From assembly GCF_000018785.1 (NCBI RefSeq), contig NC_010163.1, positions 120,001 through 152,000 on the forward strand: a DNA stretch of 32,000 nucleotides, given 5' to 3'. The notes below the pieces were generated by a model. The model saw only the letters and a program-made list of their open reading frames with translations, made no database searches and was not told the DNA's origin. The position numbers and the translations under genes were made by a program. This stretch comes from Acholeplasma laidlawii PG-8A. Lineage in GTDB: Bacteria > Bacillota_I > Bacilli_A > Acholeplasmatales > Acholeplasmataceae. Shown piece after piece: positions 15,186 to 30,662 of the stretch; position 1 is the stretch's first letter, and the number at the start of each line of letters is the position of its first letter.

Positions 15186-15191
15186 AATATG

Positions 15192-15217: not shown

Positions 15218-15264
15218 AGTGTTTATAGACTTATATTTAGATGAAACAAATTTTACAAATATGG

Positions 15265-15311
15265 ATAATCATATGATTATACTTAATTTATACTTAGTTA
15301 TTTGATATAAT
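15265..15311 (+). promoter_or_regulatory. 16-bp perfect palindrome plus extended -10 promoter upstream of the kinase-like gene
   Basis: ATAATCATATGATTAT at 15265-15280. TGaTATAAT at 15303-15311. Confidence 0.45.
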
Positions 15312-15328
15312 CAAAGCGTAGGAAAGAA

Positions 15329-16147
15329 ATGGTGGTAATACATATGAAGAAATACTTAATTGCAGGCCTGGTCATAGAATTTGATTATCGTTATGATCAA
15401 TATTTCAAAAATAACATCGAAAACTATATATATGAAGGTAGTAGAGAAGTCGATCATACAATCACTGTGAAATATGCTCTAGAACTTCAAAAACCAACAT
15501 CTAAGCTTCACAGAATCTTTTCAAAAAGTGTTTCTGGTTTAAAAGCATATATGAACTATGATGAAAACTATAGAAACATTGAAATTTGGATTGATGAAGA
15601 TACATTTACAGATGCTGCGACAGCAGAATACGTTTATACTGGTATGATCTTTTTAGAATTAGCTCAACGCCATGGTCTACTACCACTACACGGTTCAGCA
15701 ATTAACTATAAAGGGGATGTGATCTTATTTGCTGCGCCAAGTGGCACAGGTAAATCAACACATGCCAGAATGTGGAAGCACCTGTTTAAAGATGATGTAT
15801 CATGGGTAAATGATGATAAGCCGTTACTTGATGTTACAAGTGAAGGTATCTTTGTTTATGGTGCACCATTTAGTGGACAGTACTCTTCTAATACTAATGA
15901 TAAAAAACCACTTAAAGCTATTGTATTTTTACAACAAGGTATTACAGATAATGTTCAAAAATTAAATGAAAAAGAAGCATTAAAACACCTAATGACCAAT
16001 ACATTAAGACCAACTGAAGAAGCACTTTGGGATCAAGCTTTAAATCATTTTGAACAAATTATTAAGGAAATTCCAATTTACTTACTGGATGCTAGTTTAT
16101 CTACATCCGCAGTGAAGTCTATTAAAAAGGCGATTTATAATGAATAA
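15329..16147 (+). CDS. HPr kinase/phosphorylase-like P-loop protein (RiPP/lasso-type Ser kinase-like)
   Basis: LHGSAINYKGDVILFAAPSGTGKST matches the HprK core pattern HG..v...G.gvl..G.SG.GKS. 272 aa. Alternative ATG at 15344. The 3' end overlaps the next gene by 8 nt. Confidence 0.6.
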   Translation: MVVIHMKKYLIAGLVIEFDYRYDQYFKNNIENYIYEGSREVDHTITVKYALELQKPTSKLHRIFSKSVSGLKAYMNYDENYRNIEIWIDEDTFTDAATAEYVYTGMIFLELAQRHGLLPLHGSAINYKGDVILFAAPSGTGKSTHARMWKHLFKDDVSWVNDDKPLLDVTSEGIFVYGAPFSGQYSSNTNDKKPLKAIVFLQQGITDNVQKLNEKEALKHLMTNTLRPTEEALWDQALNHFEQIIKEIPIYLLDASLSTSAVKSIKKAIYNE

Positions 16148-17117
16148 ATATTATTCACAACAAAACCAAATCATTAAAAAGACAATGTTACTGTTTGTAA
16201 CATTGTTTTTAACTGTTATAATGGTATCTTGTAAACCTAAACAAGATACTGGGGCTATTGAACTGATTAATCAAGCATATGAGGTCTTAGCACTAGAGTT
16301 TCAAGAAGGGGATACGATAGACAGTGTAACTGGTGACTTTAGATTACCGTTATTTGTTAAAGAATTCCCTGATGTAGCCCTTTTGTGGTCCTCAGGTACT
16401 GAAACTATCATTAAGCCACAAGGACTGTTTGCAGTGATTAATAGACCTCAAGAAGATACTAGTGTTGACCTAACTGCTACCTTAAGTTACAAAAAAGAAG
16501 CAAGAGATAAAATATTTAGCATCAATGTATCAGGCTACACAGACTATGAGTTTACTGGTTACTACGAAAGTTTAAGTGGACTACTCATGGATGAGTTCAC
16601 AGTCGAACTCTCATCTATGATTAAAACAAAGGGTCGTGCCACAGGTACTACTGCACAAGTTAGACAAATTGATAACTATGAAGGTCAAAACTATAATATC
16701 TATACTGGATTTGAAGCATATGGTAATAGAGAACACGTTTGGCCACAGTCTCACTTAGGTGTTATAAAAGATGATCTGCACAATCTACGTGCTGCAAATT
16801 CACAAGTAAATTCTACCAGAGGTAATAAGTTCTTTGTAGATAATCCATTGGGTGGGTCTTGGAAAGTTATTGGTAACGGATTTTATCCGGGTGAAGATCA
16901 TATTGGTGATGTAGCTAGGATTATCTTATACATCTATATTAGGTATGAGCTTAATATTCAACTGGTTGGACAACTTGATTTATTCTTGATGTGGCATGAG
17001 ATGGACCCAGTAAGTCCATTTGAAATATCTAGAAATAATAAGATCTATGCAATACAAAACAATAGAAACCCATTTATTGATTATCCAGATCTTGTAGATA
17101 TCATGTTTAATAATTGA
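16140..17117 (+). CDS. lipoprotein with Ig-like module and C-terminal Endonuclease I (Bsn/EndA-like) nuclease domain
   Basis: Lipobox IMVSC. C-terminal motifs NREHVWPQS, DLHNLRAANSQVNSTRGN, GDVARIILYI and WHEMDPVSPFEISRNNKIYAIQNNRNPFIDYP. Confidence 0.85.
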   Translation: MNKYYSQQNQIIKKTMLLFVTLFLTVIMVSCKPKQDTGAIELINQAYEVLALEFQEGDTIDSVTGDFRLPLFVKEFPDVALLWSSGTETIIKPQGLFAVINRPQEDTSVDLTATLSYKKEARDKIFSINVSGYTDYEFTGYYESLSGLLMDEFTVELSSMIKTKGRATGTTAQVRQIDNYEGQNYNIYTGFEAYGNREHVWPQSHLGVIKDDLHNLRAANSQVNSTRGNKFFVDNPLGGSWKVIGNGFYPGEDHIGDVARIILYIYIRYELNIQLVGQLDLFLMWHEMDPVSPFEISRNNKIYAIQNNRNPFIDYPDLVDIMFNN

Positions 17118-17148
17118 AAAATATGACCGTTTATAGGTCATATTTTTA
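17117..17148 (+). terminator. rho-independent terminator
   Basis: AAAATATGACC / GGTCATATTTT stem, 7-nt loop, T tail. Confidence 0.85.
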
Positions 17149-17292
17149 TATATATGTAACCGTTATTATAAAATTAGTATAAAGATGCATATATTACTTG
17201 TAATTTGAGTTTAAATTATGTATATTGATATGTTACGCGAAAATTAAAGGAGAACATTCACACTATGAAAAACTTGTAACAATATTACAATC

Positions 17293-20200
17293 ATGCTTAT
17301 TTCAATATTTATAGTTTCATGTGAATCCATTGATACACTGCCGACTGAATTGCTTGAAAAAGTAGAAATTAATTTATCAGAAGGGGATAGACTAGATCAT
17401 ATTACTTCTGATTTCTCATTACCTTCTGGCTTAGAAGATAATAAAGAAATTACAATTACTTGGACATCAAGTGATCCTGTTGTTATCTTAATAGAAAATA
17501 ACATGGGAAAAGTTACTAGACAAAGTGCTGATAAATCAGTTACTTTAACTGCTAAAGTAACTTTAGGTAGTAATTCAAAAGATATTACCTTTGATTTAAT
17601 CGTTATTAAATTAGAAGATGTTATTACACCAGATACAACTAAACCAGTTATTACGGGTGCTAAAGACATCAACTATACAATTGGTGATGCTGAACCATCT
17701 TACTTAGATGGTGTGTCAGCAACCGATGATGTAGATGGAGAAGTTGATGTTACTGTAGATACTACTAATGTTAACTTAAGCGTTAAAGGCGTTTATAACA
17801 TTATTTATACTGCAATGGATAATGCAGGTAATAAAGAAGAAGTTACTGTAATAGTAATTGTAACAAGTAATGAAGTACCTGTAGTTGGTGAAACTGTTAC
17901 ATTTAAATACACTGGTACTACTACTGGTAATATGACAACTGGAAATAATGCAGTCTCAGTTGGACTAGTAGAGTCAGTATTTAATGTCACAACAGACTCT
18001 GTAGGAGAGTTTAATAATATTATTGGTTTAAATAAAGATGGATCTGTAAGATTATATGCAGATAGAACAACTGGTAATGGTAATACATTAACAGTTGCAA
18101 CATTAGGTGAACAAAAAATCAATGCAATTACAATTGTATTTGGTGTAGGTTCAAACACTGTTGAAGGTGAGACAAGTGGTTTATTAAAACTTGGTTCACA
18201 AGAAATCACATTAGGCTTAGCTGATTTATCAAGTACTACTAAAACATATACAGATTTAGATATTAAAGAATTTAGCTTAAAGAATACAACAACAGGTACT
18301 AAATCAGGTCAAATCTGGATTGTATCTATTGATATTACTTATGGTGGCTCAGGTTCAGTTACACCAGGTGAAGATGCTGTTGCACCTGTAATTAGCGGTG
18401 CTAAAGACATTACTTATGTAATTGGTCAAGATGCTCCAAACTACTTAGCTGGTGTATCTGCACTAGATGCAGTTGACGGTGTTGTTCAAGTATCAGTGGA
18501 TGCTAGTGCTGTAAACTTAGAAGTTTCTGGTACATATGATGTTATCTACACAGCTACTGACTTAAAAGGTAATGTTGCTGAAGTTGTTGTACAAATTACT
18601 GTGACTGATGGTGAAGAAGTAGTTGATCAAGAAACATTAGTTCATCACTTCCAATTTACAGGTGATTTACAACATGGTTATTCTGATAGTGCTGAAGCAT
18701 CTGTATTAAAGGATACTGTTACAAATAAAAATGTAGATATTTTAAAGAAACGTGCAAATACAACTGGTAATGAATTAATCTTATCTGGTGCATCCACATC
18801 ACAAACAACTGCTTGGATTGTGTTTAACTTCCAAACAAAGATTAATAAAATCACATTTAACTTAAAAACTTGGAGTGATCTAGATTTAGCGGCAACAACT
18901 GTTGCTAAGCTACAAACTAAAGTTGGTAGTAATTGGGTTGACATCTTAGATTTATTACCACACTTAACAGTGGATGGTAAATTAATTGAAGTCACTGATG
19001 TTGAACTAGATAACTTACGTATCTTTGTAGATGCATCTGTAGGTACTCAAAATACAGCAAGAATTAAAATCTCTGATTTAAAAATGTTTAATCTAAAACC
19101 TGCTAAACCAGCAGAACAATTAAATGTAGAATTAGACCGTAATCAATTATCAATTCCAACAACATTTATTGAAAATGGAGTAGCAACACTTTCAAAAGTT
19201 GGTGCTAAAGGAAGTACAATTGTTTGGTCATATACAAGTGCAACAAACACAAACAACAATTTAATTAATCTTTCAACTGGTGCAGTAACTGTACCAAGTG
19301 AAGGTCAAGTAGAGGTAAGCTTAACAGCAACACTTACAAATGGTGAATTTTCTTTAACAAAACAATTTATTGTTAAATTAGGTGAGGGTAACCCAACAAC
19401 TATTTTATCTGTTAGAGGTGAAACAAACCAAAGTTTTGTTAAAACAGTTGGTGTTGTTACATCTGTTTATACTAAAGGAAATGAACTGTTTGTCTTCATG
19501 GAAGACCAAACAGCAGCGATTTTAGTTAGAATACCAACTTCACTTAATGCAACACTAAAAGCTGGTGATGAAATTGAAGTTAGAGGTACAAAACTAACTG
19601 AAAACTCAAATATTTATATTGGAAATATTCGTGGTGTTAAAAAGTTAGCCACTAAAGAAGCATCTCCACTAATTATTACTGCTGACAAGATAGCAAACAA
19701 TCCATCCAAATTAGTATCTATCTTTGGTCTAATGTCAACTAAATATACAAATACTCAAACAAACTATGTGTTACATACAAATCAAGGTAGTTTTACAATC
19801 TATGTACCACAAGATTTAAACCAAACTGAAAAATTAGCAATTCAAAACAAATTAGCAAACCTAGACCCAGGTCTAAGAGTAAGTGTCATTGCACCAGTTT
19901 ACAAAGAAGGATCAAATAACTATATATTTGTAACAAGTGCTAGTGAGTTAATAGTAGATAACACAGTTGACTTTAACAACGTCTCTGCAATTATTTTAGA
20001 TAACATTGTACTACCTACAATTGGTACATCAACATCAAGTAATCTAGACTTAACAGTAGCAGGAGAATTATTATTTGGTGCTACTATTAACTGGGTATCT
20101 TCAAACCCTGCTGTATTATCAAATACTGGTGTAATTAACCAAGGAGATAATGATGTTGTAGTTACATTAACATATACTATCTTATTTGATAGTGAAGTTG

Positions 20201-20817
20201 TTGAAACTAAATCATTTAATATTACAGTTAATTCAATTTCAAGTTTTACAGGTTACTATTCAGTATTAAATGGTTTATCTGGTAATGCTTTTAAATCAGC
20301 TTTAACAAATATGATTAAGACTATGGGTTCACAATCAGGTTCTACAAGCCAAGTACAAGCAATTGATAATTACAATGGAAAAAACTATAATATCTATACT
20401 GGTTTTGGTGCATATGGTAACCGTGAACACGTTGTACCAGCATCTAAACTAAGAGCAGTTGGTGCTAAAGAAGATGACTTACATAACTTAAGAGCTGCAG
20501 TAGTATCAGTCAACTCAACACGTTCTAATTATCCATTTACAAATGCTGCAACAGGTGCTAATTGGAAGTTGATTAATGGTGCATTCTACCCAGGTGAAGA
20601 ACACGTAGGGGATGTAGCGCGTATTGTATTATATATCACATTACGTAACAACATTAAGATTACTGAAGTTGGTTCATACCAAATGTTTTTAACATGGCAT
20701 GAACAAGATCCAGTAAGTGATTTTGAGATATCTAGAAACGAAAAAATATTTGGAATTCAAAAGAGCCGTAATCCATTTATTGATCATCCAGAATTAGTAA
20801 ATGTTTTATTTAGCTAA
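17293..20817 (+). CDS. large multidomain surface nuclease: Ig-like modules, two DUF5011/HYR-like modules, OB-fold-like region, C-terminal Endonuclease I domain
   Basis: 1174-aa ORF. Paralogous modules at 17629-17865 and 18367-18612. C-terminal NREHVVPAS, DLHNLRAAVVSVNSTRSN, GDVARIVLYI and RNPFIDHPE. The SD-preceded start appears to be ATG 17265, which is in another frame (see findings). Confidence 0.85.
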   Translation: MLISIFIVSCESIDTLPTELLEKVEINLSEGDRLDHITSDFSLPSGLEDNKEITITWTSSDPVVILIENNMGKVTRQSADKSVTLTAKVTLGSNSKDITFDLIVIKLEDVITPDTTKPVITGAKDINYTIGDAEPSYLDGVSATDDVDGEVDVTVDTTNVNLSVKGVYNIIYTAMDNAGNKEEVTVIVIVTSNEVPVVGETVTFKYTGTTTGNMTTGNNAVSVGLVESVFNVTTDSVGEFNNIIGLNKDGSVRLYADRTTGNGNTLTVATLGEQKINAITIVFGVGSNTVEGETSGLLKLGSQEITLGLADLSSTTKTYTDLDIKEFSLKNTTTGTKSGQIWIVSIDITYGGSGSVTPGEDAVAPVISGAKDITYVIGQDAPNYLAGVSALDAVDGVVQVSVDASAVNLEVSGTYDVIYTATDLKGNVAEVVVQITVTDGEEVVDQETLVHHFQFTGDLQHGYSDSAEASVLKDTVTNKNVDILKKRANTTGNELILSGASTSQTTAWIVFNFQTKINKITFNLKTWSDLDLAATTVAKLQTKVGSNWVDILDLLPHLTVDGKLIEVTDVELDNLRIFVDASVGTQNTARIKISDLKMFNLKPAKPAEQLNVELDRNQLSIPTTFIENGVATLSKVGAKGSTIVWSYTSATNTNNNLINLSTGAVTVPSEGQVEVSLTATLTNGEFSLTKQFIVKLGEGNPTTILSVRGETNQSFVKTVGVVTSVYTKGNELFVFMEDQTAAILVRIPTSLNATLKAGDEIEVRGTKLTENSNIYIGNIRGVKKLATKEASPLIITADKIANNPSKLVSIFGLMSTKYTNTQTNYVLHTNQGSFTIYVPQDLNQTEKLAIQNKLANLDPGLRVSVIAPVYKEGSNNYIFVTSASELIVDNTVDFNNVSAIILDNIVLPTIGTSTSSNLDLTVAGELLFGATINWVSSNPAVLSNTGVINQGDNDVVVTLTYTILFDSEVVETKSFNITVNSISSFTGYYSVLNGLSGNAFKSALTNMIKTMGSQSGSTSQVQAIDNYNGKNYNIYTGFGAYGNREHVVPASKLRAVGAKEDDLHNLRAAVVSVNSTRSNYPFTNAATGANWKLINGAFYPGEEHVGDVARIVLYITLRNNIKITEVGSYQMFLTWHEQDPVSDFEISRNEKIFGIQKSRNPFIDHPELVNVLFS

Positions 20818-20885
20818 TCACTTTGACTAATAAGTCTTAGAAAGTAAGCTTAGACTCATCAATTATAAAAGGCAATAAACTTAAT

Positions 20886-20939
20886 AAGATGTTAGTAGTG
20901 ATTTATATAATCTATAAAAATACTACTAACATCTTTTTT
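20886..20939 (+). terminator. rho-independent terminator (long-loop hairpin)
   Basis: Perfect 14-bp stem AAGATGTTAGTAGT / ACTACTAACATCTT followed by TTTT. Confidence 0.75.
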
Positions 20940-21078
20940 CATAAAGGGTTAGTATTTCAAATTTAGGATATAATATATAATAACTTAATCACAAGGATGT
21001 AGATTTAATAAAAATTATGTCTTAGAAAAGTCTAAAAGAAAAATTAATGGTAAAATAGGGTAAACTAGGGAGAAGTTT

Positions 21079-22227
21079 ATGAGAAAAATAAGTATTGGAT
21101 TCATGATTCTATTTTTTACCTTTATATTGGTATCTTGTAGTGCTAGTCCAAGCGATATGGAGTTTAGACTACAGCAACCTACGAATATAAAAGTAGAAAA
21201 AAATATTTTAACATTTAGTGAGGTAGAGGGAGCAAGTTCATATATTTTAAGTATTAATGGAGAAAATATTAATATATATGAAACAACATATACCTTTACA
21301 GAAGATGGGTCATACAAGGTGCGTATACAAGCGCTTAGCGGTGTAGAAGACTTTGTAGATTCTTTGTTTACGGATGCTTATGAGTTTAAGGTTAGATTCT
21401 TACAATATCCAGATGATATTGGAGTTTTAAATAACCAAGTATTCTTTACACGCGATGAAGATGCTGACAGCTATGATGTAGAAATTAATGGCACAGTATA
21501 CAATTCAAAAGAAGATTTACCACCATACTTAGAACCGGGCACCTATGAAATACGCGTTAAGGCAAGAAGTGATATGTATAATGAATCTGAATTTTCTCCA
21601 ATAACGAAAGTTATTGTAGATAAATCAGATAGAGTAGTTACAAAGCATAACTACCAGTATAGTATTAACTCTAAATTTGAGTTACCACTATACACCTATA
21701 AAACAATAGGTTTAAACTATATTGAACTATTTGAAGCAAAAAAAGAAGATGATCATTTAGTAGAAGAAAATGCATTAAGTGAACGTATAGACTATTACGC
21801 GTTTAATCAAACTATCTACTTTAGCACAAGTTACATGAATTTTTTAACTAAGAATCTAAAAGATAATCAGCAATTAAAACAAGAAGTTTTAACATTTGTG
21901 ATTCACACGAATTTAGGAGATCATGAAATTACACTTGAGATTAATAGATTAGATACACCTTATGCTTATAACGGTCAAATTCAAAGTACTAACTTTAAAG
22001 ATGACGTAGAATTCTTATTTGAAACATTTGATTATGTATTTATCAGTGTAGAAGGTTATGATATTAAGGATATGCATTTTAAATTTGAAAATGGTGAATT
22101 AATCCTTTATGCAGACTACATACTTGATACTTATGGATTTAAAAGAAGTGCTGAAAAATTAGAATTTACTGTGATCTTTCAAAAAGATGGTATCAACTAT
22201 AAATACCCAATATATATATTAAAATAG
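21079..22227 (+). CDS. lipoprotein with tandem Fn3-like modules (paralog of 27443..28033)
   Basis: Lipobox ILVSC. AGGGAGAAG SD. N- and C-terminal regions align with the 196-aa lipoprotein (PTNIKVEKNILTFSEVEGASSY vs PTNLKFEIATLTFDEVEHATSY; TNFKDDVEF vs TNFKDDIKL). Confidence 0.8.
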   Translation: MRKISIGFMILFFTFILVSCSASPSDMEFRLQQPTNIKVEKNILTFSEVEGASSYILSINGENINIYETTYTFTEDGSYKVRIQALSGVEDFVDSLFTDAYEFKVRFLQYPDDIGVLNNQVFFTRDEDADSYDVEINGTVYNSKEDLPPYLEPGTYEIRVKARSDMYNESEFSPITKVIVDKSDRVVTKHNYQYSINSKFELPLYTYKTIGLNYIELFEAKKEDDHLVEENALSERIDYYAFNQTIYFSTSYMNFLTKNLKDNQQLKQEVLTFVIHTNLGDHEITLEINRLDTPYAYNGQIQSTNFKDDVEFLFETFDYVFISVEGYDIKDMHFKFENGELILYADYILDTYGFKRSAEKLEFTVIFQKDGINYKYPIYILK

Positions 22228-22236
22228 GTGGATAAA

Positions 22237-22503
22237 ATGAAATTAAAAAAAGATTATATTTTAAAAACTGTTGCTGGTGAACATATTGTAGTACCTATAG
22301 GTGTTGAGGCAACTAAATTTCATGGCATGATTACATTAAATGAAACAGGTAAGTTTTTATTTGAAAACTTAAAAGAAGAAACAACAGAAGAAATACTTAT
22401 CATGAAACTACTTGAAAGTTATGATGTGACACCTTCTCGTGCTAAAACAGATGTTGATAAGTTTCTTGGGTTACTAAAGAAACACAATTTATTTGATAAT
22501 TAA
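22237..22503 (+). CDS. PqqD-family protein (RiPP recognition element-like peptide chaperone)
   Basis: ILKTVAGEHIVVPIG....FHGMITLNETGKFLFENL...EEILIMKLLESYDV..SRAKTDVDKFLGLLKKHNLF fits the PqqD/RRE pattern. AGGTGG SD before ATG 22237 (the ORF track starts at GTG 22228, directly after the upstream stop). Confidence 0.75.
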   Translation: MKLKKDYILKTVAGEHIVVPIGVEATKFHGMITLNETGKFLFENLKEETTEEILIMKLLESYDVTPSRAKTDVDKFLGLLKKHNLFDN

Positions 22504-22522
22504 ACATAGTATTTTATTATTT

Positions 22523-22552
22523 ACAGGTGACATTTTAAATGTCACCTGTTTT
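22523..22552 (+). terminator. rho-independent terminator after the PqqD-like gene
   Basis: Perfect 11-bp stem ACAGGTGACAT / ATGTCACCTGT, 5-nt loop, T-rich tail. Confidence 0.85.
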
Positions 22553-22755
22553 ATTAAGTAATAAGAAAATATAAGTAATAAACGCTATTATATTGGAAAC
22601 TGGGAGCGTTTTACTAAATTAGTTGATTTATTTTAATATATATAATACAATGTAGTGTTACTTGTAAATATTGATTCATGCAAAGGGGCACTTACTTTAA
22701 AATGTACAATAAAGTTATTAGTCTAATGGGTAGCATTTTATCAAATTTAAATATA

Positions 22756-22788
22756 AGAGACTGACCATTTTTTTGGTCGGTCTCTTTT
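22756..22788 (+). terminator. second, orphan rho-independent terminator
   Basis: AGAGACTGACC / GGTCGGTCTCT stem (one G-U pair), then TTT. No annotated gene lies upstream of it. Confidence 0.75.
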
Positions 22789-22852
22789 AATGATTTAAGT
22801 GAGATTATGGTATCTAAATGATTAGTAAATTGAATGTAAACATTAAGTAAAG

Positions 22853-22876
22853 TCTTAGGATCTAAGGTCTTAGATC
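22853..22876. promoter_or_regulatory. operator-like nested palindrome upstream of the 47-aa ORF
   Basis: CTTAG-GAT-CTAAG-GT-CTTAG-ATC. GATCTAAG / CTTAGATC is a perfect 8-bp inverted repeat with a 2-nt spacer. -10-like TATAGT/TATACT lie at 22886-22896. Confidence 0.4.
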
Positions 22877-22947
22877 ATGAATTTGTATAGTATACTAATG
22901 AAGGTATCTTATAAGTAAATAAAAATAAATAAAGGGAGAGAAAAGAC

Positions 22948-23091
22948 ATGAAGAAAGAAACACTTAAAAAGAAGACTTATGATAGTCCAACTATAGAGGT
23001 TACTGAGTTTTCAATGAAGGATTCGATTGCTACAAGCGGTGTTGGAGCTGCGTTTTTTGAGCAAGTATGGGGCGGCGGAGGAAGTGTATAA
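22948..23091 (+). CDS. 47-aa RiPP precursor-like peptide (lasso-type leader and core features)
   Basis: Not in the ORF track (too short). GGGAGAG SD 7 nt upstream. Encodes MKKETLKKKTYDSPTIEVTEFSMKDSIATSGVGAAFFEQVWGGGGSV. The stop overlaps the next ATG (TAATG). Confidence 0.6.
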   Translation: MKKETLKKKTYDSPTIEVTEFSMKDSIATSGVGAAFFEQVWGGGGSV

Positions 23092-25586
23092 TGAAAAAAA
23101 TTAGTATTTTCTTTTTAGCATTAGTTGGATTAGTACTTATTGGTATGCACGCTGCACCTAAAGCTGCAGCTGCGGGGTTTGGCAATACTTATTCGTTTGA
23201 TGTTACTATTGTACATGGTGAGAGTAATCTTGATGTACATAAACCAGATCTAGGTAGTTTTAATCATGGTAATAAAGTATCTATTGATATTACCTCTTTA
23301 AATGGTTTAGAGGCAGTTAATTCTAAACAATTTGCGTTCTTTGTTGTTAATGGACAAATAATAGAAAATAATTTAGAACAATTTATGGTTACATCAAATA
23401 GTAAAATTACGGCTGTCTTCACAAATGGTGAAGAAAAGGCTGCAGTTTTTATTGATTCTAACGGTGAGTTTTTATCAGTTGATTATGTTGATGGGGAAAC
23501 AGCTCCAGTCGCACCTAGTGTCGCTAACTTATCAAAACCAGGGTTAACACCTGTTGCGTTTGGGGTTCTAGATCCAATCTCGGAACATACAGTATATGTC
23601 GTGGATTATGTACTTACTAATCCAGAAGCAACAGTCATGATTAACGGCGAAGCTCATCCATATAACTCAGTTGTTACATTAACTGCTGAAGGTCCATTTA
23701 CACACTGGGAAGAAGATGGGGTTGTTGTATCGTATAATCCTAATTATAAATTCTCAGCGTTACGAGATAGAATAATTACTCAAAAGTCAGATGGTGGAAC
23801 ACCTTCAACAATTATTACACTGTCAGATGATTTGGGTTTAAGAAGTAGTGAAGGTAAATCTAGTTTCTTAGGACAGTTTGAATTAACCGCTGGTCAAGAG
23901 TTTGTCGAATCTGGTATCTTGGCAAGTGATGTATTTGTTAATAACTTAACAATTGACACACCAAATGTACAAGTTATCTCATCAGACGCTATTCAACCAA
24001 ACACTAATGAGTTTTTAAGAACTGTTGATACAGATGCATTCGCACTTATTAGAGGATATGTTAAAACTAATACGGGTGTTTACTACTCTGATAATTTTAC
24101 ACCAAAAACAAATACAGGCTTGATGATATATGAAGTTTATGGTGGCGGTGGTAATAGTGGAGCACTTTATACGAATGATTATGCTGTTCTTTATAATGGA
24201 ACTTCAGTTGACATTGATTTATCAAATTATACGCTACAATATGCAAGTGCTACTGGCCAGTTTACCAATAAAGATGAACTAAGTGGTACGATTTTAGCAG
24301 GTAAATACTTTGTAGTAAAATTAGGCGGTGGATCTACAGAATCTGATCTTCCAAGAGTTGACTTTACTGGTACTTTAAACCTATCTGGAACAAGTGGTAA
24401 GATTGCACTTGTTCTAGGTACGACTGAAGTGTCAACTAATGATTTATATAATGTAGTAGACCTTGTAGGTTTTGGTTCAGCAAATAAATATGAAGGTAAT
24501 GCAGCGGTCGGTGTTTTAAGCAACTCAACATCGGCTAAAAGAAGTAGTTTTATTGACTCGAATAATAACGGTGAAGATTTTACTGTTGGAACACCAGACC
24601 TGACGTATACATTAGATGGAGAATTTTATACGGTAGCATTTAATACAAATGGTGGAAATACTATATATGATGTAGAAGTTTATGAAAATAATAAAGTATC
24701 ACAACCTACAAATCCGACTAAACCAGGATATGTATTTGAAAATTGGTACACTTCAGCCGACTTTACCACTGTGTTTGATTTCAATACCTTAATAAATATG
24801 GATACCACTATTTATGCTAACTGGTTGGTTGAACGAACAGTGACATTTGTTGATGGAGAAACAACATTGAGTACATTAAAAGTAGCTAATGGGTTAAAAG
24901 CAACAAGGCCATCAAATCCTATTAAGTCAGGATATGCATTTGTTGATTGGTATGAGGATTCTGAATTTACTATTTTATTTGATTTTAATACAGAAATCAC
25001 AGCCGATAAAACGGTTTATGCTAGATTTGATTTAGATGATACTCCTGTAGTCGATACTATTGTGTCGGTGTTAAAACCCACAGATTCAGGATATCCGACA
25101 TCATATGGTAATATGACCTGGACTAGAGATACAGTTACATTCAGTGGTCAACAATTGACTAGGAATGGGAATGGAAGTTCAACGCCTTATGTAATACAAG
25201 GTAACAGTAATAGAAATCCTAGGTCAAATATAACTTCAAGTCAATTGCCAGGAAACTTACAGTTTGTAAGAATAACATTGGCTAGTTCAGGTACATTTGC
25301 CGGGGCATCAGCAAAAATGTATGTTGAAGTTTCTAGTACATCTGATTTTTTAGTAAGTACGAAATATGGTATAGGATCAGGCTATACATCAAACGCTAAT
25401 ATCACATTAACAGGCCACGCGAATGGAACTACCATAACAAATGCACTCACTTTAGCTGACCCCACACCAACAACTCCAAGTATTGTCTTTAATATTTCAT
25501 CTGATAATGCACGTTTTGTAAGGATTGTTTGGGAAAGTGGAGCATCTTATTACAGTTCAATTGAATTTGAATATAATTCAAAGTAA
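23091..25586 (+). CDS. secreted multidomain protein: signal peptide, lamin-tail domain (LTD), two Listeria-Bacteroides (Flg_new) repeats; probable N-terminal part of a frameshifted nuclease gene
   Basis: MKKISIFFLALVGLVLIG signal peptide with GGAGGAAG SD 6 nt upstream (the ORF-track start at 23067 is unlikely). LTD pattern LMIYEVYGGGGNSGALYTNDYAVLYNGTSVDIDLSNYTLQYASATG. Two PGYVFENWY / SGYAFVDWY repeats. Confidence 0.8.
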   Translation: MKKISIFFLALVGLVLIGMHAAPKAAAAGFGNTYSFDVTIVHGESNLDVHKPDLGSFNHGNKVSIDITSLNGLEAVNSKQFAFFVVNGQIIENNLEQFMVTSNSKITAVFTNGEEKAAVFIDSNGEFLSVDYVDGETAPVAPSVANLSKPGLTPVAFGVLDPISEHTVYVVDYVLTNPEATVMINGEAHPYNSVVTLTAEGPFTHWEEDGVVVSYNPNYKFSALRDRIITQKSDGGTPSTIITLSDDLGLRSSEGKSSFLGQFELTAGQEFVESGILASDVFVNNLTIDTPNVQVISSDAIQPNTNEFLRTVDTDAFALIRGYVKTNTGVYYSDNFTPKTNTGLMIYEVYGGGGNSGALYTNDYAVLYNGTSVDIDLSNYTLQYASATGQFTNKDELSGTILAGKYFVVKLGGGSTESDLPRVDFTGTLNLSGTSGKIALVLGTTEVSTNDLYNVVDLVGFGSANKYEGNAAVGVLSNSTSAKRSSFIDSNNNGEDFTVGTPDLTYTLDGEFYTVAFNTNGGNTIYDVEVYENNKVSQPTNPTKPGYVFENWYTSADFTTVFDFNTLINMDTTIYANWLVERTVTFVDGETTLSTLKVANGLKATRPSNPIKSGYAFVDWYEDSEFTILFDFNTEITADKTVYARFDLDDTPVVDTIVSVLKPTDSGYPTSYGNMTWTRDTVTFSGQQLTRNGNGSSTPYVIQGNSNRNPRSNITSSQLPGNLQFVRITLASSGTFAGASAKMYVEVSSTSDFLVSTKYGIGSGYTSNANITLTGHANGTTITNALTLADPTPTTPSIVFNISSDNARFVRIVWESGASYYSSIEFEYNSK

Positions 25587-26584
25587 ATAACCCTACTGAA
25601 GACAACGAATCGCCAATAATTACATTAGAACCGGGCGTAAGTCCGGTTCGACTCTCAGTAGGGGATTCATGGACATTACCTACTGCAACTGCAGTAGATA
25701 ATGTTGAAGGTGAAATTTCATTTATAGATGTAGATACTACACTTATCAATCAATTCTATAATAGTTCTACAAGTCAATATATATTCACAACAACAGGTAC
25801 CTATGAAGTGGAATTCACTGCAGCAGATGAATCCGGAAATATAGCTACCAAAGTTATAATAATTATTGTGAGTGATGGTGTAGATAGTTATACAGGCTAT
25901 TATGAGTCTATTAATGGACTTAGTGGCCAAGCACTAGTAGATGAATTGTATACTGTCCTAAATAATACAGGACAATATACTACAACAACATATGGCGCAG
26001 CTAGATATCATCTAGAACAAACCGATGCATGGATAGGATTTAATACAAACTACTTGTATTTAATTTATACAGATACATTAAAGGGATCTGTAAGTAGTGG
26101 ATATCCTGATGAAGGATATGCACTAGCAAAATGGGATGAAGGTGCTACTTGGAATAGAGAACACGTTTGGGCTAAATCTTTATTTGGTACAGGTAACTAC
26201 GAACCGGGAGCTTCAACAAGAGGTATTGATGCAGACTTACATAACTTAAGAGCTGCCGACACAACTGTAAACTCCACAAGAAGCAACAACCTATTTATTA
26301 ACCAAGTATACAATGCAGGTGGTTTTGGTAACTACAATTCAAAATGGTATCCAGGAGATCACCATAGAGGGGATGTTGCTAGAATCTTATTCTACATGGA
26401 TATTAGATGGGGTGGTTTAACCAACTTATCTAACATAGGTGATTTAGCAACACTGCTCCAGTGGCATGAACTAGATCCAGTGGATGATTTTGAAATCAAT
26501 AGAAATAATCTAATATATGGATTCCAAAACAATAGAAATCCATTTATTGATCATCCAGAACTTGTCGATAAAATTTGGGCATAA
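25577..26584 (+). CDS. DUF5011/HYR-like module plus Endonuclease I (Bsn-like) domain; continuation of 23091..25586 in the -1 frame
   Basis: This frame is open from 25577, well upstream of the ORF-track GTG at 25808, and encodes NNPTEDNESPIITLEPGVSPV...TYEVEFTAADESGN. It then has WNREHVWAKS, DLHNLRAADTTVNSTRSN, GDVARILFYM and NRNPFIDHPE. Confidence 0.8.
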   Translation, partial: FKVNNPTEDNESPIITLEPGVSPVRLSVGDSWTLPTATAVDNVEGEISFIDVDTTLINQFYNSSTSQYIFTTTGTYEVEFTAADESGNIATKVIIIIVSDGVDSYTGYYESINGLSGQALVDELYTVLNNTGQYTTTTYGAARYHLEQTDAWIGFNTNYLYLIYTDTLKGSVSSGYPDEGYALAKWDEGATWNREHVWAKSLFGTGNYEPGASTRGIDADLHNLRAADTTVNSTRSNNLFINQVYNAGGFGNYNSKWYPGDHHRGDVARILFYMDIRWGGLTNLSNIGDLATLLQWHELDPVDDFEINRNNLIYGFQNNRNPFIDHPELVDKIWA

Positions 26585-26606
26585 TAAATCAATAATCAAT
26601 CATAAT

Positions 26607-26645
26607 AAGCAGCAATCACATATATGAATGTGTATTGCTGCTTTT
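26607..26645 (+). terminator. rho-independent terminator
   Basis: AAGCAGCAAT...ATTGCTGCTT stem with an inner CACA/TGTG extension, then TTT. Confidence 0.8.
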
Positions 26646-26842
26646 AATGAGATTATGTAATCAAAATAGAATCAGATATAAATTCATAACGTTTTTATTA
26701 AACATAACTAGATTTATGTAGAGCTCAATACAGATAAGCATTATATGAATTAGCTTAAATATGTTACAATATGATGTTAGGTTTATAAAAATATATAGAG
26801 ATAGATTAAATCTTTGTATAATAAAAATAGGGGATTTGTAAA

Positions 26843-27415
26843 ATGAAAAAAATAATGATAGTCATAGGTTTGTGCTTTCTATTCATATTAGTAGGTTGTA
26901 CTACAAATAATAATCGTGACATAAGTTATAGTTATGTGTTCATTGGTGAAGATGAAAGAACTTTCCAAACAACACTTACAACAAAGAATGAATTAGATTC
27001 AATCAAACAAAAAATCAATGTGATAGAGAATAATTTAAAAGAGATCACACTTGATGAACCAGATTATAATCAATCAACAGTAAGTACATTTGGTTTTAGT
27101 TATAATGAGTATCGTGGTGGAAGATACTATTATTACACATTTGCCTTATACTATAAGATTGTTGATTCAAAACTAGAGTACACTATTCATAAAAATAAAC
27201 AAGAGATGAGAGTTCGTGTACATAGTAAAGTACTCATGGAATATATATACTCAAGTAAAGAAGAAGGTACTTTAGTTAACTATACATTTGGCTTGTATTA
27301 TAATGAAACTCCAAATGGTTTACAAACTCAAAAATATATACTAAAAATAAGTGAATCTGATGATAACTTGGTATATAAATTTGGTGGTTTTACTTTAACA
27401 AATAGTAATTATTAA
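26843..27415 (+). CDS. lipoprotein of unknown function
   Basis: Signal peptide plus lipobox ILVGC. AGGGGA SD. No recognisable domain. Confidence 0.75.
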   Translation: MKKIMIVIGLCFLFILVGCTTNNNRDISYSYVFIGEDERTFQTTLTTKNELDSIKQKINVIENNLKEITLDEPDYNQSTVSTFGFSYNEYRGGRYYYYTFALYYKIVDSKLEYTIHKNKQEMRVRVHSKVLMEYIYSSKEEGTLVNYTFGLYYNETPNGLQTQKYILKISESDDNLVYKFGGFTLTNSNY

Positions 27416-27442
27416 TAAGATTAAAAACAAGGATGGAATAAT

Positions 27443-28033
27443 ATGATGAAAAAGCTTAGCTTAGTCTTAAGTGTTGTAATGATTCTTATATTAATTGGGT
27501 GTGTAGATGATAAACCAACTACAAGATTGGAAACACCAACAAACCTAAAATTTGAAATTGCAACGCTTACGTTTGATGAAGTAGAGCATGCTACAAGCTA
27601 CATTATTATTGCAGAAGGACTTAATGCAATCGTAAATACGAATAGCTACACCTTCCCACATGAAGGTGTATATAAGGTTCGTGTTGTTGCAAGAGCTAAA
27701 GGCTACCTTGATTCACTGTACTCCACGGAACTTGAGGTGGTTGTAAGTTTCACAGATCAAAAACCATACATGATATCAAGTAAAGATATAACAACTAACT
27801 TTAAGGATGACATAAAACTTTCCTTTGCTAGCTTAGGTTATACGTTTAAAAGTCTTAATGGATATGCTATTACTTCAAGTGACTATACATATGTAAATGA
27901 TGTACTCACAATCAAGGCTAGTTTTCTAAAAACAGCATTTGAAAAAGAAAGTGAAAGAACATCTTTAATATTTTCATATACATTTGAAAAAGACGATCAA
28001 ACACACTTAGGTTTTATTACAATTAAAAAATAA
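27443..28033 (+). CDS. Fn3-like lipoprotein, short paralog of 21079..22227
   Basis: Lipobox ILIGC. Both ends are similar to the 382-aa lipoprotein. Confidence 0.8.
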   Translation: MMKKLSLVLSVVMILILIGCVDDKPTTRLETPTNLKFEIATLTFDEVEHATSYIIIAEGLNAIVNTNSYTFPHEGVYKVRVVARAKGYLDSLYSTELEVVVSFTDQKPYMISSKDITTNFKDDIKLSFASLGYTFKSLNGYAITSSDYTYVNDVLTIKASFLKTAFEKESERTSLIFSYTFEKDDQTHLGFITIKK

Positions 28034-28041
28034 AATACATT

Positions 28042-28074
28042 AAAATTCCTATCAAATTTGATAGGAATTTTATT
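28042..28074 (+). terminator. rho-independent terminator
   Basis: AAAATTCCTATCAA / TTGATAGGAATTTT palindrome followed by T-rich sequence. Confidence 0.85.
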
Positions 28075-28091
28075 ATATGGATGTTAATAGA

Positions 28092-28100
28092 TGTTATAAT
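28092..28100 (+). promoter_or_regulatory. extended -10 promoter element for the SPFH gene
   Basis: TGtTATAAT at 28092-28100. The -35 region is weak. Confidence 0.4.
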
Positions 28101-28202
28101 ATTAAGTGAACAGTTATCCAAAAACATATGAAATGTGGACCACCACATTTAAATAGAGCTATAGATAAATGTATCTTAAAAAATAGAGGGAGATTTTTTA
28201 AC

Positions 28203-29225
28203 ATGGCATATGTTATAAGTAGTTTTATCTTATTTGTAGTATTTCTTGCAGGAGCAATTGGTATCATTGCAAACTACAAACATAAATATGGAAGTAAAGT
28301 TTATTTTTCCATACTGGCTGCACCGTTAGCATTTTTAATACTCTTATTTGGTTCATTTACAACCGTAGGTGCAAATGAAGTAGGTATTATATTTGATGAA
28401 TTAAATGGTGGAGTTTTAGAAGAGACCTATGGTCAAGGGTTACATGCTAAATCACCATTTAGACATGTAACAACTATATCTACTACAAATAGAACATCTT
28501 ATATAGAAGTGTATTCTCAAACTGAAGATAGTATTTTTGCAAAGTTTGAGATTACTGTAATTTATAATATAGAAACAAATAATGCAGGGCTATTTTATAG
28601 AACAACAGGTAGTGTAGATATTTCTTCACAACAGTTGAACTCTATTGTTAAAAAGAACTTACAAAGTATAACTACACAACATAATATATTTGATATTATG
28701 GGTGTGTCATTAGAAGAGGTACGTGCTGCATTTAGAGATGTCTTATCAAATGATCTAATGAATATCTATCATATAACATTAGTATCAGTTTCTATTGATG
28801 ATGTAGATGCAGGTACTGAAATTGAACAAATCATTCAAGATAAAGCAAAAGCAATTCAACAAATTGAAATCGCACAACAAGAAAAAGCAAGACAAGACGT
28901 TATCAATGAAACAAATCGTATTAAAGCTGAAATTGATGCAGAGATTGCTTTAATTAAAGCACAATCTGATTTTGTAGTAGCTGAAAAACAAGCAGAAGCT
29001 CAAGCTGTATTAAATGCAGCAGCAGTAAATGCAATTCAAACAATGTATGACCTACAGTTTGAAACGCCTGCAGAAAAACTAGAGTTTGAGACAAATGGTA
29101 CAGGAGGATATCTAACAATTCAAGAGGTTTCTACAATTGTTATTAAACAACTTTACTATGATGTATGGGATGGCAAATTACCTACTGTTATTACAGACGG
29201 ATCAGGCATTATTATTCAACCATAA
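28203..29225 (+). CDS. SPFH/band-7 (prohibitin/HflK-like) membrane protein
   Basis: N-terminal TM helix, SPFH core (VGANEVGIIFDELNGGV...), and an Ala/Gln/Glu-rich coiled-coil tail. GAGGGAG SD before ATG 28203. The ORF-track start at 28128 has no SD. Confidence 0.8.
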   Translation: MAYVISSFILFVVFLAGAIGIIANYKHKYGSKVYFSILAAPLAFLILLFGSFTTVGANEVGIIFDELNGGVLEETYGQGLHAKSPFRHVTTISTTNRTSYIEVYSQTEDSIFAKFEITVIYNIETNNAGLFYRTTGSVDISSQQLNSIVKKNLQSITTQHNIFDIMGVSLEEVRAAFRDVLSNDLMNIYHITLVSVSIDDVDAGTEIEQIIQDKAKAIQQIEIAQQEKARQDVINETNRIKAEIDAEIALIKAQSDFVVAEKQAEAQAVLNAAAVNAIQTMYDLQFETPAEKLEFETNGTGGYLTIQEVSTIVIKQLYYDVWDGKLPTVITDGSGIIIQP

Positions 29226-29246
29226 TTAAATATATATATAAATCAT

Positions 29247-29283
29247 AATAACCCAATCACTTTCATGTGATTGGGTTATTTCT
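29247..29283 (+). terminator. rho-independent terminator after the SPFH gene
   Basis: Perfect 14-bp stem AATAACCCAATCAC / GTGATTGGGTTATT, 6-nt loop. Confidence 0.75.
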
Positions 29284-29323
29284 ATATGGATAACTACCCA
29301 TCACCACATAATTTATAAATTAT

Positions 29324-29344
29324 ATCGGGAAATTTTTTTCCGAT
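29324..29344. repeat. 21-bp palindromic repeat copy 1
   Basis: ATCGGGAAATTTTTTTCCGAT. Confidence 0.9.
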
Positions 29345-29441
29345 ATAAAAGAAGTTAAATATGATATAGAATTAAAATAATGGATTATTTGACACGTTAT
29401 TAGGCATTTTTAAGTGTTTATGTACTGCAAGGGTTATCTAA

Positions 29442-29462
29442 ATCGGGAATATTATTTCCGAC
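29442..29462. repeat. 21-bp palindromic repeat copy 2
   Basis: ATCGGGAATATTATTTCCGAC. Confidence 0.9.
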
Positions 29463-29473
29463 TAGTCTTAATA

Positions 29474-29494
29474 ATCGGGAAATTATTACCCGAT
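29474..29494. repeat. 21-bp palindromic repeat copy 3
   Basis: ATCGGGAAATTATTACCCGAT. Confidence 0.9.
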
Positions 29495-29587
29495 TAAGGG
29501 GAACCATTAAATTAATATTGGCGTAACTCTTACATATTACCACGATCTATAAAATTGATGCACCTTACCACAAATCTTAATAATCGC

Positions 29588-29608
29588 ATCGGGAATTAAT
29601 TTCCCGAT
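29588..29608. repeat. 21-bp palindromic repeat copy 4
   Basis: ATCGGGAATTAATTTCCCGAT. Confidence 0.9.
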
Positions 29609-29614
29609 ATTGCA

Positions 29615-29650
29615 TTAAAAAAGTGATCTACTCTAAACTTTGTAGACCAC
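29615..29650 (-). terminator. rho-independent terminator of the minus-strand VOC gene
   Basis: On the minus strand, GTGGTCTAC / GTAGATCAC stem (one mismatch) followed by TTTTTT. Confidence 0.7.
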
Positions 29651-29660
29651 TTCAATAACT

Positions 29661-30509
29661 TTATCTAAAATCAGTTGTTAAATATACTTTAACGTTGTTT
29701 ACATCTTTAATATACACCTTATCACTGTCTTGGGTTAATGTGATATGAGCTTTGTCTATACGTTCTAGTAAAGTATTATATCTATCCTTTGGAATATATA
29801 AGGTATAAGATTTTAGACCGACTGCATTATCTGGATTATTTGGTATATTTTGACCATTCCATATATTAAAACCAATATGGTGGTGATAACCTAAATCACT
29901 TACGAATGCTGCTTGTGGGCCATATTCCATAGTGTTTTGAAATCCTAATATATCAATGAAGAAAGTTCTTGCTGCTTTCATGTTAGCTACATGTAAATGG
30001 ATATGTCCCATGATGGTTTCATCAGGAATTTTAGTAAATTGTGTTTTTAGTGCTTTATTAACTAAGTCTTGATAGTCCATTGGACTGTTTACAACTTCAT
30101 CAAATCTTGGCCATTCATTTTCTGGTTTATCTGCATAAACCTCAATACCATTACCATCTGGATCATCTAAGTAAAGTGCTTCACTAATACCATGATCAGC
30201 ACCTCCAGATACTGGTGTTTTAGTATCGATCATATGCTTAATGAATTGTCCTAAGTGTGCTCTTGAAGGAAGTAGTATTGCGAAGTGATATAGACCGGTT
30301 GTAAGTTGTTTTGGCATAGATAGTGTATTATATACTAATGTTATTAAATGTGTATTGGTGTGTGTACCTAATTTATAGGTGTTATCAATTTTTTCTAGTA
30401 GTTTAAAACCAAATACTTCTTGGTAAAACTTTAGTGATGTTTCAATGTTTGAAACCATTAAAGTAACATCTGTTACTTGCATAAATTGATTAGAGTGAAA
30501 ATTGTTCAT
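29661..30509 (-). CDS. two-domain VOC-family protein (glyoxalase / extradiol ring-cleaving dioxygenase-like)
   Basis: 282 aa with two tandem VOC-like halves (VTLMVSNIETSLKFYQEVFGFKL and HIHLHVANMKAARTFFIDILGF). AGGAGG SD. Confidence 0.75.
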   Translation of the reverse strand: MNNFHSNQFMQVTDVTLMVSNIETSLKFYQEVFGFKLLEKIDNTYKLGTHTNTHLITLVYNTLSMPKQLTTGLYHFAILLPSRAHLGQFIKHMIDTKTPVSGGADHGISEALYLDDPDGNGIEVYADKPENEWPRFDEVVNSPMDYQDLVNKALKTQFTKIPDETIMGHIHLHVANMKAARTFFIDILGFQNTMEYGPQAAFVSDLGYHHHIGFNIWNGQNIPNNPDNAVGLKSYTLYIPKDRYNTLLERIDKAHITLTQDSDKVYIKDVNNVKVYLTTDFR

Positions 30510-30610
30510 GTGTAACCTCCTAAAGTATTTATGTTACGAGTTTATTATAACAGTGATAGTATCTTTTGGGAAGTAGGCACTTCTTGGTAACTATGTTACT
30601 TTACAACAAA

Positions 30611-30652
30611 ATCCCAAAATAAAATCCATTCAAGCAAATGACTTGAATGGAT
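30611..30652 (-). terminator. rho-independent terminator of the minus-strand DUF3267-like gene
   Basis: On the minus strand, perfect 11-bp stem ATCCATTCAAG / CTTGAATGGAT followed by TTTTATTTT. Confidence 0.8.
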
Positions 30653-30662
30653 GGGTTTATTG

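Follow-up and report, generated by a model that had tools for sequence, protein, structure and literature searches.

What does a 47-codon open reading frame (ORF) in the chromosome of Acholeplasma laidlawii PG-8A, a member of the Mollicutes (Mycoplasmatota in the NCBI taxonomy), encode, and if its product is a precursor peptide, to which class does the peptide belong? The ORF lies in a 32,000-nucleotide stretch of contig NC_010163.1 (positions 120,001 to 152,000), which we call the window and in whose coordinates all positions are given. Its translation (22948..23091, forward strand) is MKKETLKKKTYDSPTIEVTEFSMKDSIATSGVGAAFFEQVWGGGGSV, the same as that given in a first-pass annotation, which was made from the DNA alone and which read the ORF as the precursor of a lasso peptide. 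We find that one half of that reading stands, namely that the ORF specifies the precursor of a peptide made on ribosomes and modified after translation (a RiPP), whereas the lasso class does not, no cyclase or B2 protease having been found in the window or recurrently in related loci. Instead, the ORF quite likely encodes an LppA-like precursor of the family of linear polyphosphorylated peptides (LPPs), from a divergent branch that in A. laidlawii would be reduced to the precursor, a RiPP recognition element (RRE) and a kinase.

LPPs are ribosomal natural products that are related to lasso peptides but are made without a ring-forming enzyme; they were found by way of an archaeal-type signal peptidase (Popov et al., Nat Commun 2026;17:6633, PMC13381572). 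Their cluster in Paenibacillus alginolyticus DSM5050, lppA-K-B-S-D-N, contains no cyclase, and LPP clusters are embedded in capsule loci (PMC13381572). The parts of the A. laidlawii gene are as follows.

22948..23091, forward strand: lppA-like precursor peptide gene, 47 aa, recognized by its family, by purifying selection, by co-variation with the RRE and by a break in strain homology at codon 31
Codons 1 to about 25 or 30 of this gene: leader
22978-22995, forward strand: Y-D-S-P-T-I motif for docking on the RRE
23020-23037, forward strand: conserved D-S-I-A-T-S block
About 23038-23088, forward strand: hypervariable core

The precursor ORF and its family

Chance ORFs are frequent in this AT-rich window, as illustrated by a single 12-kb stretch that is overlapped by 55 ORFs of at least 30 aa. 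A length of 47 codons is within what chance produces, and it is because of its conservation, not its length, that we judge the ORF to be a real gene. A word-seeded search with the peptide returned 10 close clusters, of which two are on deposit under the name "hypothetical protein [Acholeplasma laidlawii]", and a profile search of 1.84 billion protein representatives returned 84 matches at E <= 1e-3, nearly all of which are 35-47 aa in length. The members of the family, which thus counts at least 84 clusters of small peptides, have in common a near-invariant leader pattern, K-x-Y-[DE]-x-P-x-I-E-V-x-E-F-x-x-[EK]-D-S-I-A-x-S, and their C-termini are hypervariable; in the family consensus K-x-Y-E-x-P-x-I-E-V-V-E-F-x-x-E-D-S-I-A-x-S-G is followed by 3-10 variable residues and these by [LF]-[FW]-E-E-[IL]-W-G. 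The peptide has no hit in Pfam or NCBIfam, and hence none to a curated model of lasso precursors or of other peptides.

Purifying selection acts on the leader: between Acholeplasma species the ratio of nonsynonymous to synonymous differences per site (pN/pS) over 23 leader codons is 0.17-0.35, with pS at 0.65-0.94. The conservation in relatives, with substitutions of the coding type, that had been proposed as a check on the ORF is therefore borne out by the close clusters, the profile matches and the leader ratios. Also confirmed are the GGGAGAG sequence located 7 nt 5' of the ATG and the PqqD-like gene that ends 444 nt upstream, at 22503. A comparison of A. laidlawii strains gives a DNA identity of 92-100% for the PqqD gene, for the spacer and for the leader. 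From codon 31 through the core the homology disappears; it comes back where the next gene encodes its signal peptide and is missing once more over all of that protein's mature part (23171-25560).

Leader docking and the lasso alternative

The PqqD-like gene specifies the presumptive partner of the leader:

22237..22503, forward strand: discrete RRE of the PqqD family, similar to LppB and to lasso B1 proteins, predicted to bind the leader (PF05402, E = 4.7e-14)

The protein is 98% identical to the PqqD protein of A. laidlawii strain 8195. Its profile matches PbaB1 (9x90_B, 6.5e-7), TbiB1, TfuB1 and LppB (9x8z_B, 6e-4), and its AlphaFold2 model (pLDDT 91.4) is closest in fold to the leader-bound forms of TbiB1 and TfuB1 (TM ~0.75-0.8). 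In the crystal structure of LppB with LppA, Tyr(-16) of the leader is hydrogen-bonded by Asp70 (PMC13381572), and the counterpart of this residue in the window RRE is Asp72. In an alignment of the RREs from every locus with a recognizable precursor, together with two published LppB/LppA pairs, we compared the residue at the Asp70-equivalent position with that at the leader tyrosine. All 24 leaders with tyrosine are paired with an RRE that has Asp (21) or His (3) at this position, and all six with phenylalanine are paired with one that has Ser, Gly or Ala, so that co-variation holds in 30 of 30 cases. Because the phenylalanine state is spread over six different loci (L012, L041, L049, L051, L081 and L083), shared ancestry can contribute to this pattern only to a limited extent. 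The co-variation supports the view that the small ORFs are cognate precursors and that they would be bound in the manner of LppB. Along with the homology to LppB, it upholds the earlier assignment of Y-x-x-P-x-I as the docking motif and of the PqqD-like protein as its partner. It also extends a theme of the LPP paper, the discrimination of leaders by RREs.

Docking does not by itself tell the two classes apart, since a PqqD-fold RRE of the B1 type and a YxxPxL-type leader motif (here Y11-D-S-P14-T-I16) are common to lasso and LPP systems. Were the product a lasso peptide, a B2 protease would cut after Ser30 and Gly31 would be cyclized onto Glu38 by a cyclase encoded elsewhere in the genome. 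This single sequence does have the Y-x-x-P-x-I leader, a Thr at -2 and the Gly1/Glu8 spacing; the window RRE is structurally nearest to lasso B1 proteins; and lasso clusters co-occur in more than half of LPP hosts (PMC13381572). The family as a whole has a different geometry. Thr(-2) is present in just 31 of 87 members, as compared with Ala at -3 in 78 and Ser at -1 in 79, and the conserved Glu falls at any core position from 6 to 11 after Ser30, with an Asp or Glu of any kind at positions 7-9 in only 51 of the 87. Because neither the acceptor spacing nor Thr(-2) is conserved, we regard Gly1/Glu8 as a coincidence of the window sequence; what had been taken for lasso hallmarks are features of this one peptide. 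A Ser near the C-terminus (Ser46), which had also been pointed out, is not conserved.

Gene content argues in the same direction. We collected 80 species-level loci by PqqD alignment and annotated them with hidden Markov models built for the purpose; 41 of the loci have full flanks. No Asn-synthase-like cyclase was found among the scanned window ORFs of at least 80 aa or among the families that recur in at least five of the 80 loci, and the same is true of a Transglut_core3 B2 protease. In the cassette of the relatives PqqD is followed instead by a serine signal peptidase (S24/S26). Judging from family-level geometry and gene content, the lasso reading is largely refuted, and we consider a lasso product very improbable.

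The phosphorylated lasso peptides of Firmicutes, paeninodin and pseudomycoidin, nonetheless make an instructive comparison. They too rely on a B1-type RRE that binds a [Y/W]xxPx[L/V/I] leader and on an ABC exporter, and in their case a homologue of HPr kinase puts phosphate on a Ser in the linear precursor and an NTP_transf_5 enzyme adds a hexose to that phosphate. Unlike them, the window family has no macrolactam synthetase or B2 cysteine protease, and its product is predicted to be linear. Nor would the acceptor be the C-terminal Ser, as it is in the paeninodin type, because the C-termini of the family vary. That the peptide might carry phosphate was a reasonable expectation of the first-pass annotation.

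The cassette of the relatives and its reduced form in A. laidlawii

Distant homologues of the window PqqD (45-50% identity; Oscillospiraceae and others) lie in a compact cassette composed of genes for the peptide, an ScmC kinase, PqqD, a SipW-type signal peptidase, an MsbA-like ABC exporter and an NTP_transf_5 protein. Counted over all 80 loci, ScmC is present in 51 (29 of the 41 with full flanks), an S24/S26 peptidase of ~150 aa in 53 (28 of 41) and the exporter in 32 (17 of 41), and NTP_transf_5 (PF14907) is operonic in 16 of 80. Beyond these no enzyme family, be it of cyclases, of radical SAM proteins or of another kind, recurs in five or more of the loci. Two gene orders are typical: peptide-ScmC-PqqD-peptidase-ABC-NTP5 (as in L079 and L042) and ScmC-PqqD-peptidase-NTP5-peptide, followed by the gene for a protein with LTD and Flg_new domains (as in L061, L019 and L096). 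Capsule genes (Wzz/CpsD, CpsB and Polysacc_synt_2) recur in the related loci. Three motifs, G-x-S-M-x-P, H-R and G-D, are invariant in the peptidase, which matches TIGR02228/SipW and the solved structures of SPase I and SEC11; it has its Ser, His and Asp boxes in common with SipW/Sec11-type (S26B) signal peptidases. It is small (~130-160 aa) and, according to the LPP paper, acts on a cytoplasmic leader presented by the RRE rather than on a Sec signal peptide (PMC13381572). Three cassettes from Clostridia (L026, L082 and L085) have longer, atypical precursors (e.g., MKKYTKPTVQVVELSVKESLSAIPFEFKGM...) followed by SLH-domain proteins, which suggests further precursor subtypes.

Besides the precursor and the RRE, the window contains a kinase gene:

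15329..16147, forward strand: ScmC-family HprK-like P-loop kinase, counterpart of LppK (TIGR04249, E = 4.8e-11; also TIGR04355 and TIGR04352)

The true start of the protein is probably Met6 (15344). A 66-sequence conservation analysis indicated that the motifs invariant in the ScmC family (Walker A S-G-T-G-K-S-T-H, N-D-D and G-x-P-x-x-G) are all kept in the window kinase, as S138-GTGKSTH-145, N161-D-D163 and G178-x-P-x-x-G183. Its best model matches are ScmC of the SynChlorMet system (TIGR04249 / PF27840, the latter matched on orthologues of the kinase) and HprK-related kinases A and B (TIGR04352/04355). Such kinases typically pair with a PqqD-family protein, as is the case here, but the window kinase scores far under the equivalog cut-off for SynChlorMet ScmC (42.5 vs 125 bits), and the radical SAM/SPASM partners of the SynChlorMet cassette are absent. 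Against solved structures the ScmC profile gave only a weak match, to the P-loop of PEPCK, and a single-sequence AlphaFold model was unusable (pLDDT 33). Literature searches on ScmC/SynChlorMet and on Acholeplasma with PqqD turned up nothing relevant, and the RRE papers that we consulted mention neither a kinase nor a signal peptidase. Between Acholeplasma species ScmC has 89% and 81% amino-acid identity as compared with 61% and 58% for PqqD. In this genus its gene always lies right after nusG, and it shares bases with the beginning of a nuclease gene. The kinase may have a second role beyond the peptide.

How close is this system to the published one? The domain tables of the LPP paper contain PqqD, NTP_transf_5, TIGR02228, TIGR02203/4 and TIGR04249/04352/04355, the last three models defining its "HprK kinase" group (PMC13381572). 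The relatives of the window locus likewise have a discrete PqqD RRE, an HprK-like kinase, a SipW-type peptidase, an MsbA-like exporter and NTP_transf_5, and no cyclase, and in Clostridia their cassette lies in capsule loci. The precursors of the branch show a similar layout, with an N-terminal YxxPx[V/I] motif, then a conserved block whose last residue is Ser, then a C-terminus that varies, though their spacing and residues differ from those published. Two of the LPP features are found in the window itself, the discrete RRE (a predicted leader binder) and the HprK-like kinase, and one RRE in Supplementary Data 1 of the LPP paper, apparently from a minor cluster of its sequence similarity network (SSN), is homologous to the window branch (hhalign 99.8%).

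The branch differs from the published family in several respects. Its leader reads Y-E-x-P-x-I-E-V-V-E-F-x-x-E-D-S-I-A-x-S rather than Y-x-x-P-x-V-L-x-H-Q-x-I-x-F-E-T-x-x-S. Its cores are short (9-33 aa, median 14), acidic and aromatic ([FW]-E-E-I-W-G), whereas published cores are long, basic and rich in Gly and Pro. Its hosts include Mollicutes and many gut Clostridia, whereas the LPP paper analysed Bacilli. Finally, the A. laidlawii precursor gene is coupled to a gene for an LTD/Flg_new surface protein. Neither the LPP paper nor its supplements contain an Acholeplasma sequence, a DSIA-type precursor or an MITLNETG-type RRE (PMC13381572). The class itself is not new, the LPP family having been published in 2026; the novelty lies in the branch, the range of hosts in which it occurs, the reduction in genes and the pairing with a surface protein.

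Several observations weigh against placing the A. laidlawii ORF in the LPP family. The peptidase (sought in all six frames), the ABC exporter and NTP_transf_5 are absent from the window, the 444-nt spacer between PqqD and the peptide contains no remnant of their genes, and a search with the A. granularum peptidase retrieved no A. laidlawii homologue, although this is negative evidence only. The kinase gene is 6 kb from that for the RRE, whereas the two are adjacent in most relatives. The branch leader (P-x6-F...E-D-S-I-A-x-S) does not match the published P-x9-F-x-[T/A] search motif. For the window RRE the score with a paeninodin-type lasso B1 (38.9 bits) exceeds that with a canonical LppB-type RRE (23.5 bits), and its greater closeness to the former may point to a parallel lineage. 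Finally, some cores in the family have no Ser or Thr after Ser30, and for this reason the assignment of the phosphate acceptor hinges on the uncertain site of cleavage.

The missing genes raise the alternative that the locus is a decaying remnant, in which the A. laidlawii peptide, PqqD and ScmC no longer yield a product now that the peptidase, the exporter and the NTP-transferase are gone. In keeping with decay, the counterparts of lppS, lppD and lppN are absent from the window, no peptidase homologue was retrieved from A. laidlawii, and a second kind of loss is seen elsewhere. The A. granularum loci (L007 and L017) and L094 keep ScmC, PqqD and peptidase, with no precursor or coupled surface-protein gene detected nearby; this loss is complementary to that in A. 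laidlawii and suggests erosion within the genus. By contrast, both peptidase and precursor are kept in A. equifetale, Liberiplasma, Izemoplasmatales and L096. (The peptidase gene directly follows that for PqqD in most loci from Clostridia and likewise in A. granularum, A. equifetale, Liberiplasma and Izemoplasmatales.) Several observations speak against decay, however. The precursor frame is intact in all strains and in four species-level Acholeplasma lineages without the peptidase; the low pN/pS of the leader is maintained at near-saturated pS; the kinase retains all of its catalytic motifs and is 81-89% identical across species; conservation extends to the Shine-Dalgarno sequence, to the likely -10 box and to the coupling with the downstream gene; and the core is hypervariable between conserved flanks, unlike the outcome of neutral decay. 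We consider a decaying remnant unlikely.

A divergent LPP-type precursor would work as follows, if the published system is a guide. The Y11-x-x-P14-x-I16 segment would dock as a beta-strand on the RRE, with Tyr11 hydrogen-bonded to Asp72, as modelled on the LppB-LppA structure. The bound peptide would then be phosphorylated, possibly repeatedly, on a conserved Ser by the ScmC/HprK-like kinase, much as LppK adds up to four phosphates to Ser3 of the LppA core, a conserved residue adjoining the site of cleavage, an activity that was shown experimentally (PMC13381572). The best candidate for the acceptor would be Ser30: among hydroxyl residues it alone is conserved both in precursors of the Mollicutes type (D-S-I-A-x-S) and in those of the Clostridia type (E-D-V-I-A-T-S and similar). 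Where the system is complete, a Ser/His signal peptidase of the SipW type would remove the leader, an MsbA-like ABC pump would export the product, and the NTP_transf_5 enzyme might decorate the phosphate; its LPP counterpart LppN was inactive in a heterologous host (PMC13381572). In A. laidlawii the peptidase, pump and NTP-transferase would have been lost from the locus and the precursor, RRE and kinase kept under selection. The peptide is probably still bound and phosphorylated, and its processing and export, if any, would depend on other proteins.

Where the leader would be cut bears on which residue could carry the phosphate. LppS cleaves after Thr(-1) (F-E-T/A-Q-S, with the cut at the slash) and requires LppB, and unphosphorylated precursor is cleaved poorly (PMC13381572). 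An ungapped register counted from the Tyr would place the cut after Ser26 (D-S/I-A-T-S), whereas matching the hydrophobic (-3) and acidic (-2) residues to F-E-T would place it after Asp25. A cut after Ser30 (A-x-S/G) fits the classical -3/-1 rule and the boundary proposed originally, but the phosphate would then stay on the leader. If the product carries phosphate, as LppA does, then Ser30 would be the acceptor and the cut would be upstream of it. By analogy with LppA, we consider a cut upstream of Ser30 moderately probable and grant a cut after Ser30 a smaller, though appreciable, chance. The originally proposed S/G boundary thus has the -3/-1 rule in its favor and homology to LppA against it.

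The coupled surface-protein gene and its genomic island

Downstream of the RRE gene are the following elements.

22523..22549, forward strand: intrinsic terminator 3' of the PqqD gene, a 12-bp stem followed by a T run
22755..22790, forward strand: second strong hairpin with a T run in the spacer, from sequence and fold
22886..22896, forward strand: TATAGTATACT, likely -10 region of a promoter for the peptide/surface-protein operon (putative function)
22934..22940, forward strand: Shine-Dalgarno sequence GGGAGAG, 7 nt before the ATG, with GGGAG or GGAG kept in all aligned species
23091..25586, forward strand: gene for a Sec-secreted surface protein of 831 aa with LTD domain and Listeria-Bacteroides repeat (Flg_new), from Pfam, with TAATG overlap

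The stop codon of the precursor gene overlaps the ATG of the surface-protein gene (TAATG at 23089-23093), an arrangement from which we conclude that the two are translationally coupled. The pair is found also in other Acholeplasma spp., Liberiplasma, Izemoplasmatales and L096. In most Mollicutes-type loci the precursor gene lies directly upstream of the gene for a Sec-secreted LTD/Flg_new protein, and in several Clostridia it lies directly downstream of one for an Flg_new protein. Among non-redundant precursors, 16 of 26 adjoin a same-strand ORF of at least 500 aa, as compared with ~36% expected (p ~0.007, uncorrected for phylogeny). We also considered, and rejected, the idea that the leader motif is fused to the large neighboring proteins, which carry ordinary Sec signal peptides.

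Such an arrangement might mean that the small ORF is simply an upstream ORF that controls translation of the surface-protein gene and whose peptide is functionless. The TAATG overlap with the 831-aa gene and the conservation of the pair in Mollicutes-type loci are what one would expect in that case. A purely regulatory ORF would not account, however, for a leader whose amino-acid sequence is conserved across orders, beyond the mere presence of an ORF, and which co-varies with the RRE. Moreover, the homologue in Clostridia lies upstream of the kinase gene or after the large gene, where action of this kind is impossible. We regard the regulatory explanation as highly unlikely.

The mature part of the surface protein, like the core, is hypervariable. 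Between A. laidlawii strains it has no DNA homology over 23171-25560, and the protein varies from 797 to 1023 aa, while the signal-peptide region and the last ~25 nt of the gene are conserved, a pattern that looks like cassette-style replacement of a surface antigen. The peptide would be co-transcribed with the LTD/Flg_new protein, to which it is translationally coupled, and both the core and the mature part of that protein are hypervariable between strains. The hypervariable core and the pairing with a surface protein point to a role at the cell surface.

The terminator at 22523..22549 indicates that the PqqD gene and the peptide/surface-protein pair are separate transcription units, as read from the DNA. 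Upstream of the peptide gene, TATAGTATACT is conserved in three Acholeplasma species, where the spacer around it is not alignable. Just 5' of it is a direct repeat, TAAAGTCTTAG / TAAGGTCTTAG, with 15-nt spacing (window 22848-22896), and the repeat and TATAGTATACT may be the operator and -10 box of the peptide/surface-protein operon. The region 22655-22800 is 92-99% conserved within A. laidlawii and not alignable to other species; its RNA fold has z = -4.1, and a sigma-70-like promoter match lies ahead of it at 22623-22651. The hairpin at 22755-22790 may end a short spacer transcript, and the stretch may be a small RNA; an Rfam scan of the spacer gave nothing above threshold. In an A. laidlawii-like strain (L003) the spacer is interrupted just 3' of the PqqD terminator (L003 3784-9561, corresponding to window ~22538-22560) by genes for a Pycsar-like cyclase (Guanylate_cyc), a PycTM effector and a 1460-aa NOV_C protein, with ~23 nt of spacer on both sides of the insertion. 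The peptide gene in this strain remains joined to the surface-protein gene despite the insertion.

The nusG and rplK genes are normally neighbors. Here they are separated by an island of ~16 kb (window 15186-31489) that contains the LPP-like genes together with genes for lipoproteins, a Band_7 protein and a glyoxalase, and that is syntenic yet variable across Acholeplasma species. Other features of the island are listed here.

16140-17117, 17293-20817 and 25808-26584: three secreted Endonuclease_1/aBig_2 proteins
30663-31235, reverse strand: putative zincin peptidase, a DUF3267 membrane protein in which the HExxH motif reads HELIH

The DUF3267 protein was seen only in loci of A. laidlawii, from which the LPP signal peptidase is missing; the other loci end short of that region. 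It could be a substitute leader protease or could be unrelated.

A bolder view, which we put forward tentatively and rate as rather doubtful, is that we are dealing with a distinct, previously unanalysed RiPP lineage of kinase, RRE and signal peptidase, widespread in gut Clostridia and Mollicutes. Its short acidic and aromatic phosphopeptide and the neighboring LTD/Flg_new protein would act jointly, the peptide serving, say, as a ligand, as an anchor or in maturation; both would diversify in step between strains, and the trio of precursor, RRE and kinase would suffice in the wall-less Acholeplasma. If so, this minimal trio would reveal the biological role of LPPs.

Finally, we consider what the more probable assignment, to a divergent LPP branch, would mean. 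It extends the LPP family to the Mollicutes and to hundreds of uncultured gut Clostridia, with a type of leader and core that would escape the published motif search. A. laidlawii can be grown in culture, its genome is small and it keeps only the precursor, the RRE and the kinase, so that it would offer a minimal natural system for learning what phosphorylation of the peptide does. For LPPs a part in capsule or biofilm has been speculated (PMC13381572). The pairing with a surface protein and the hypervariability between strains complement that speculation and lead to the hypothesis that the peptide has a function at the cell surface that is under diversifying selection.

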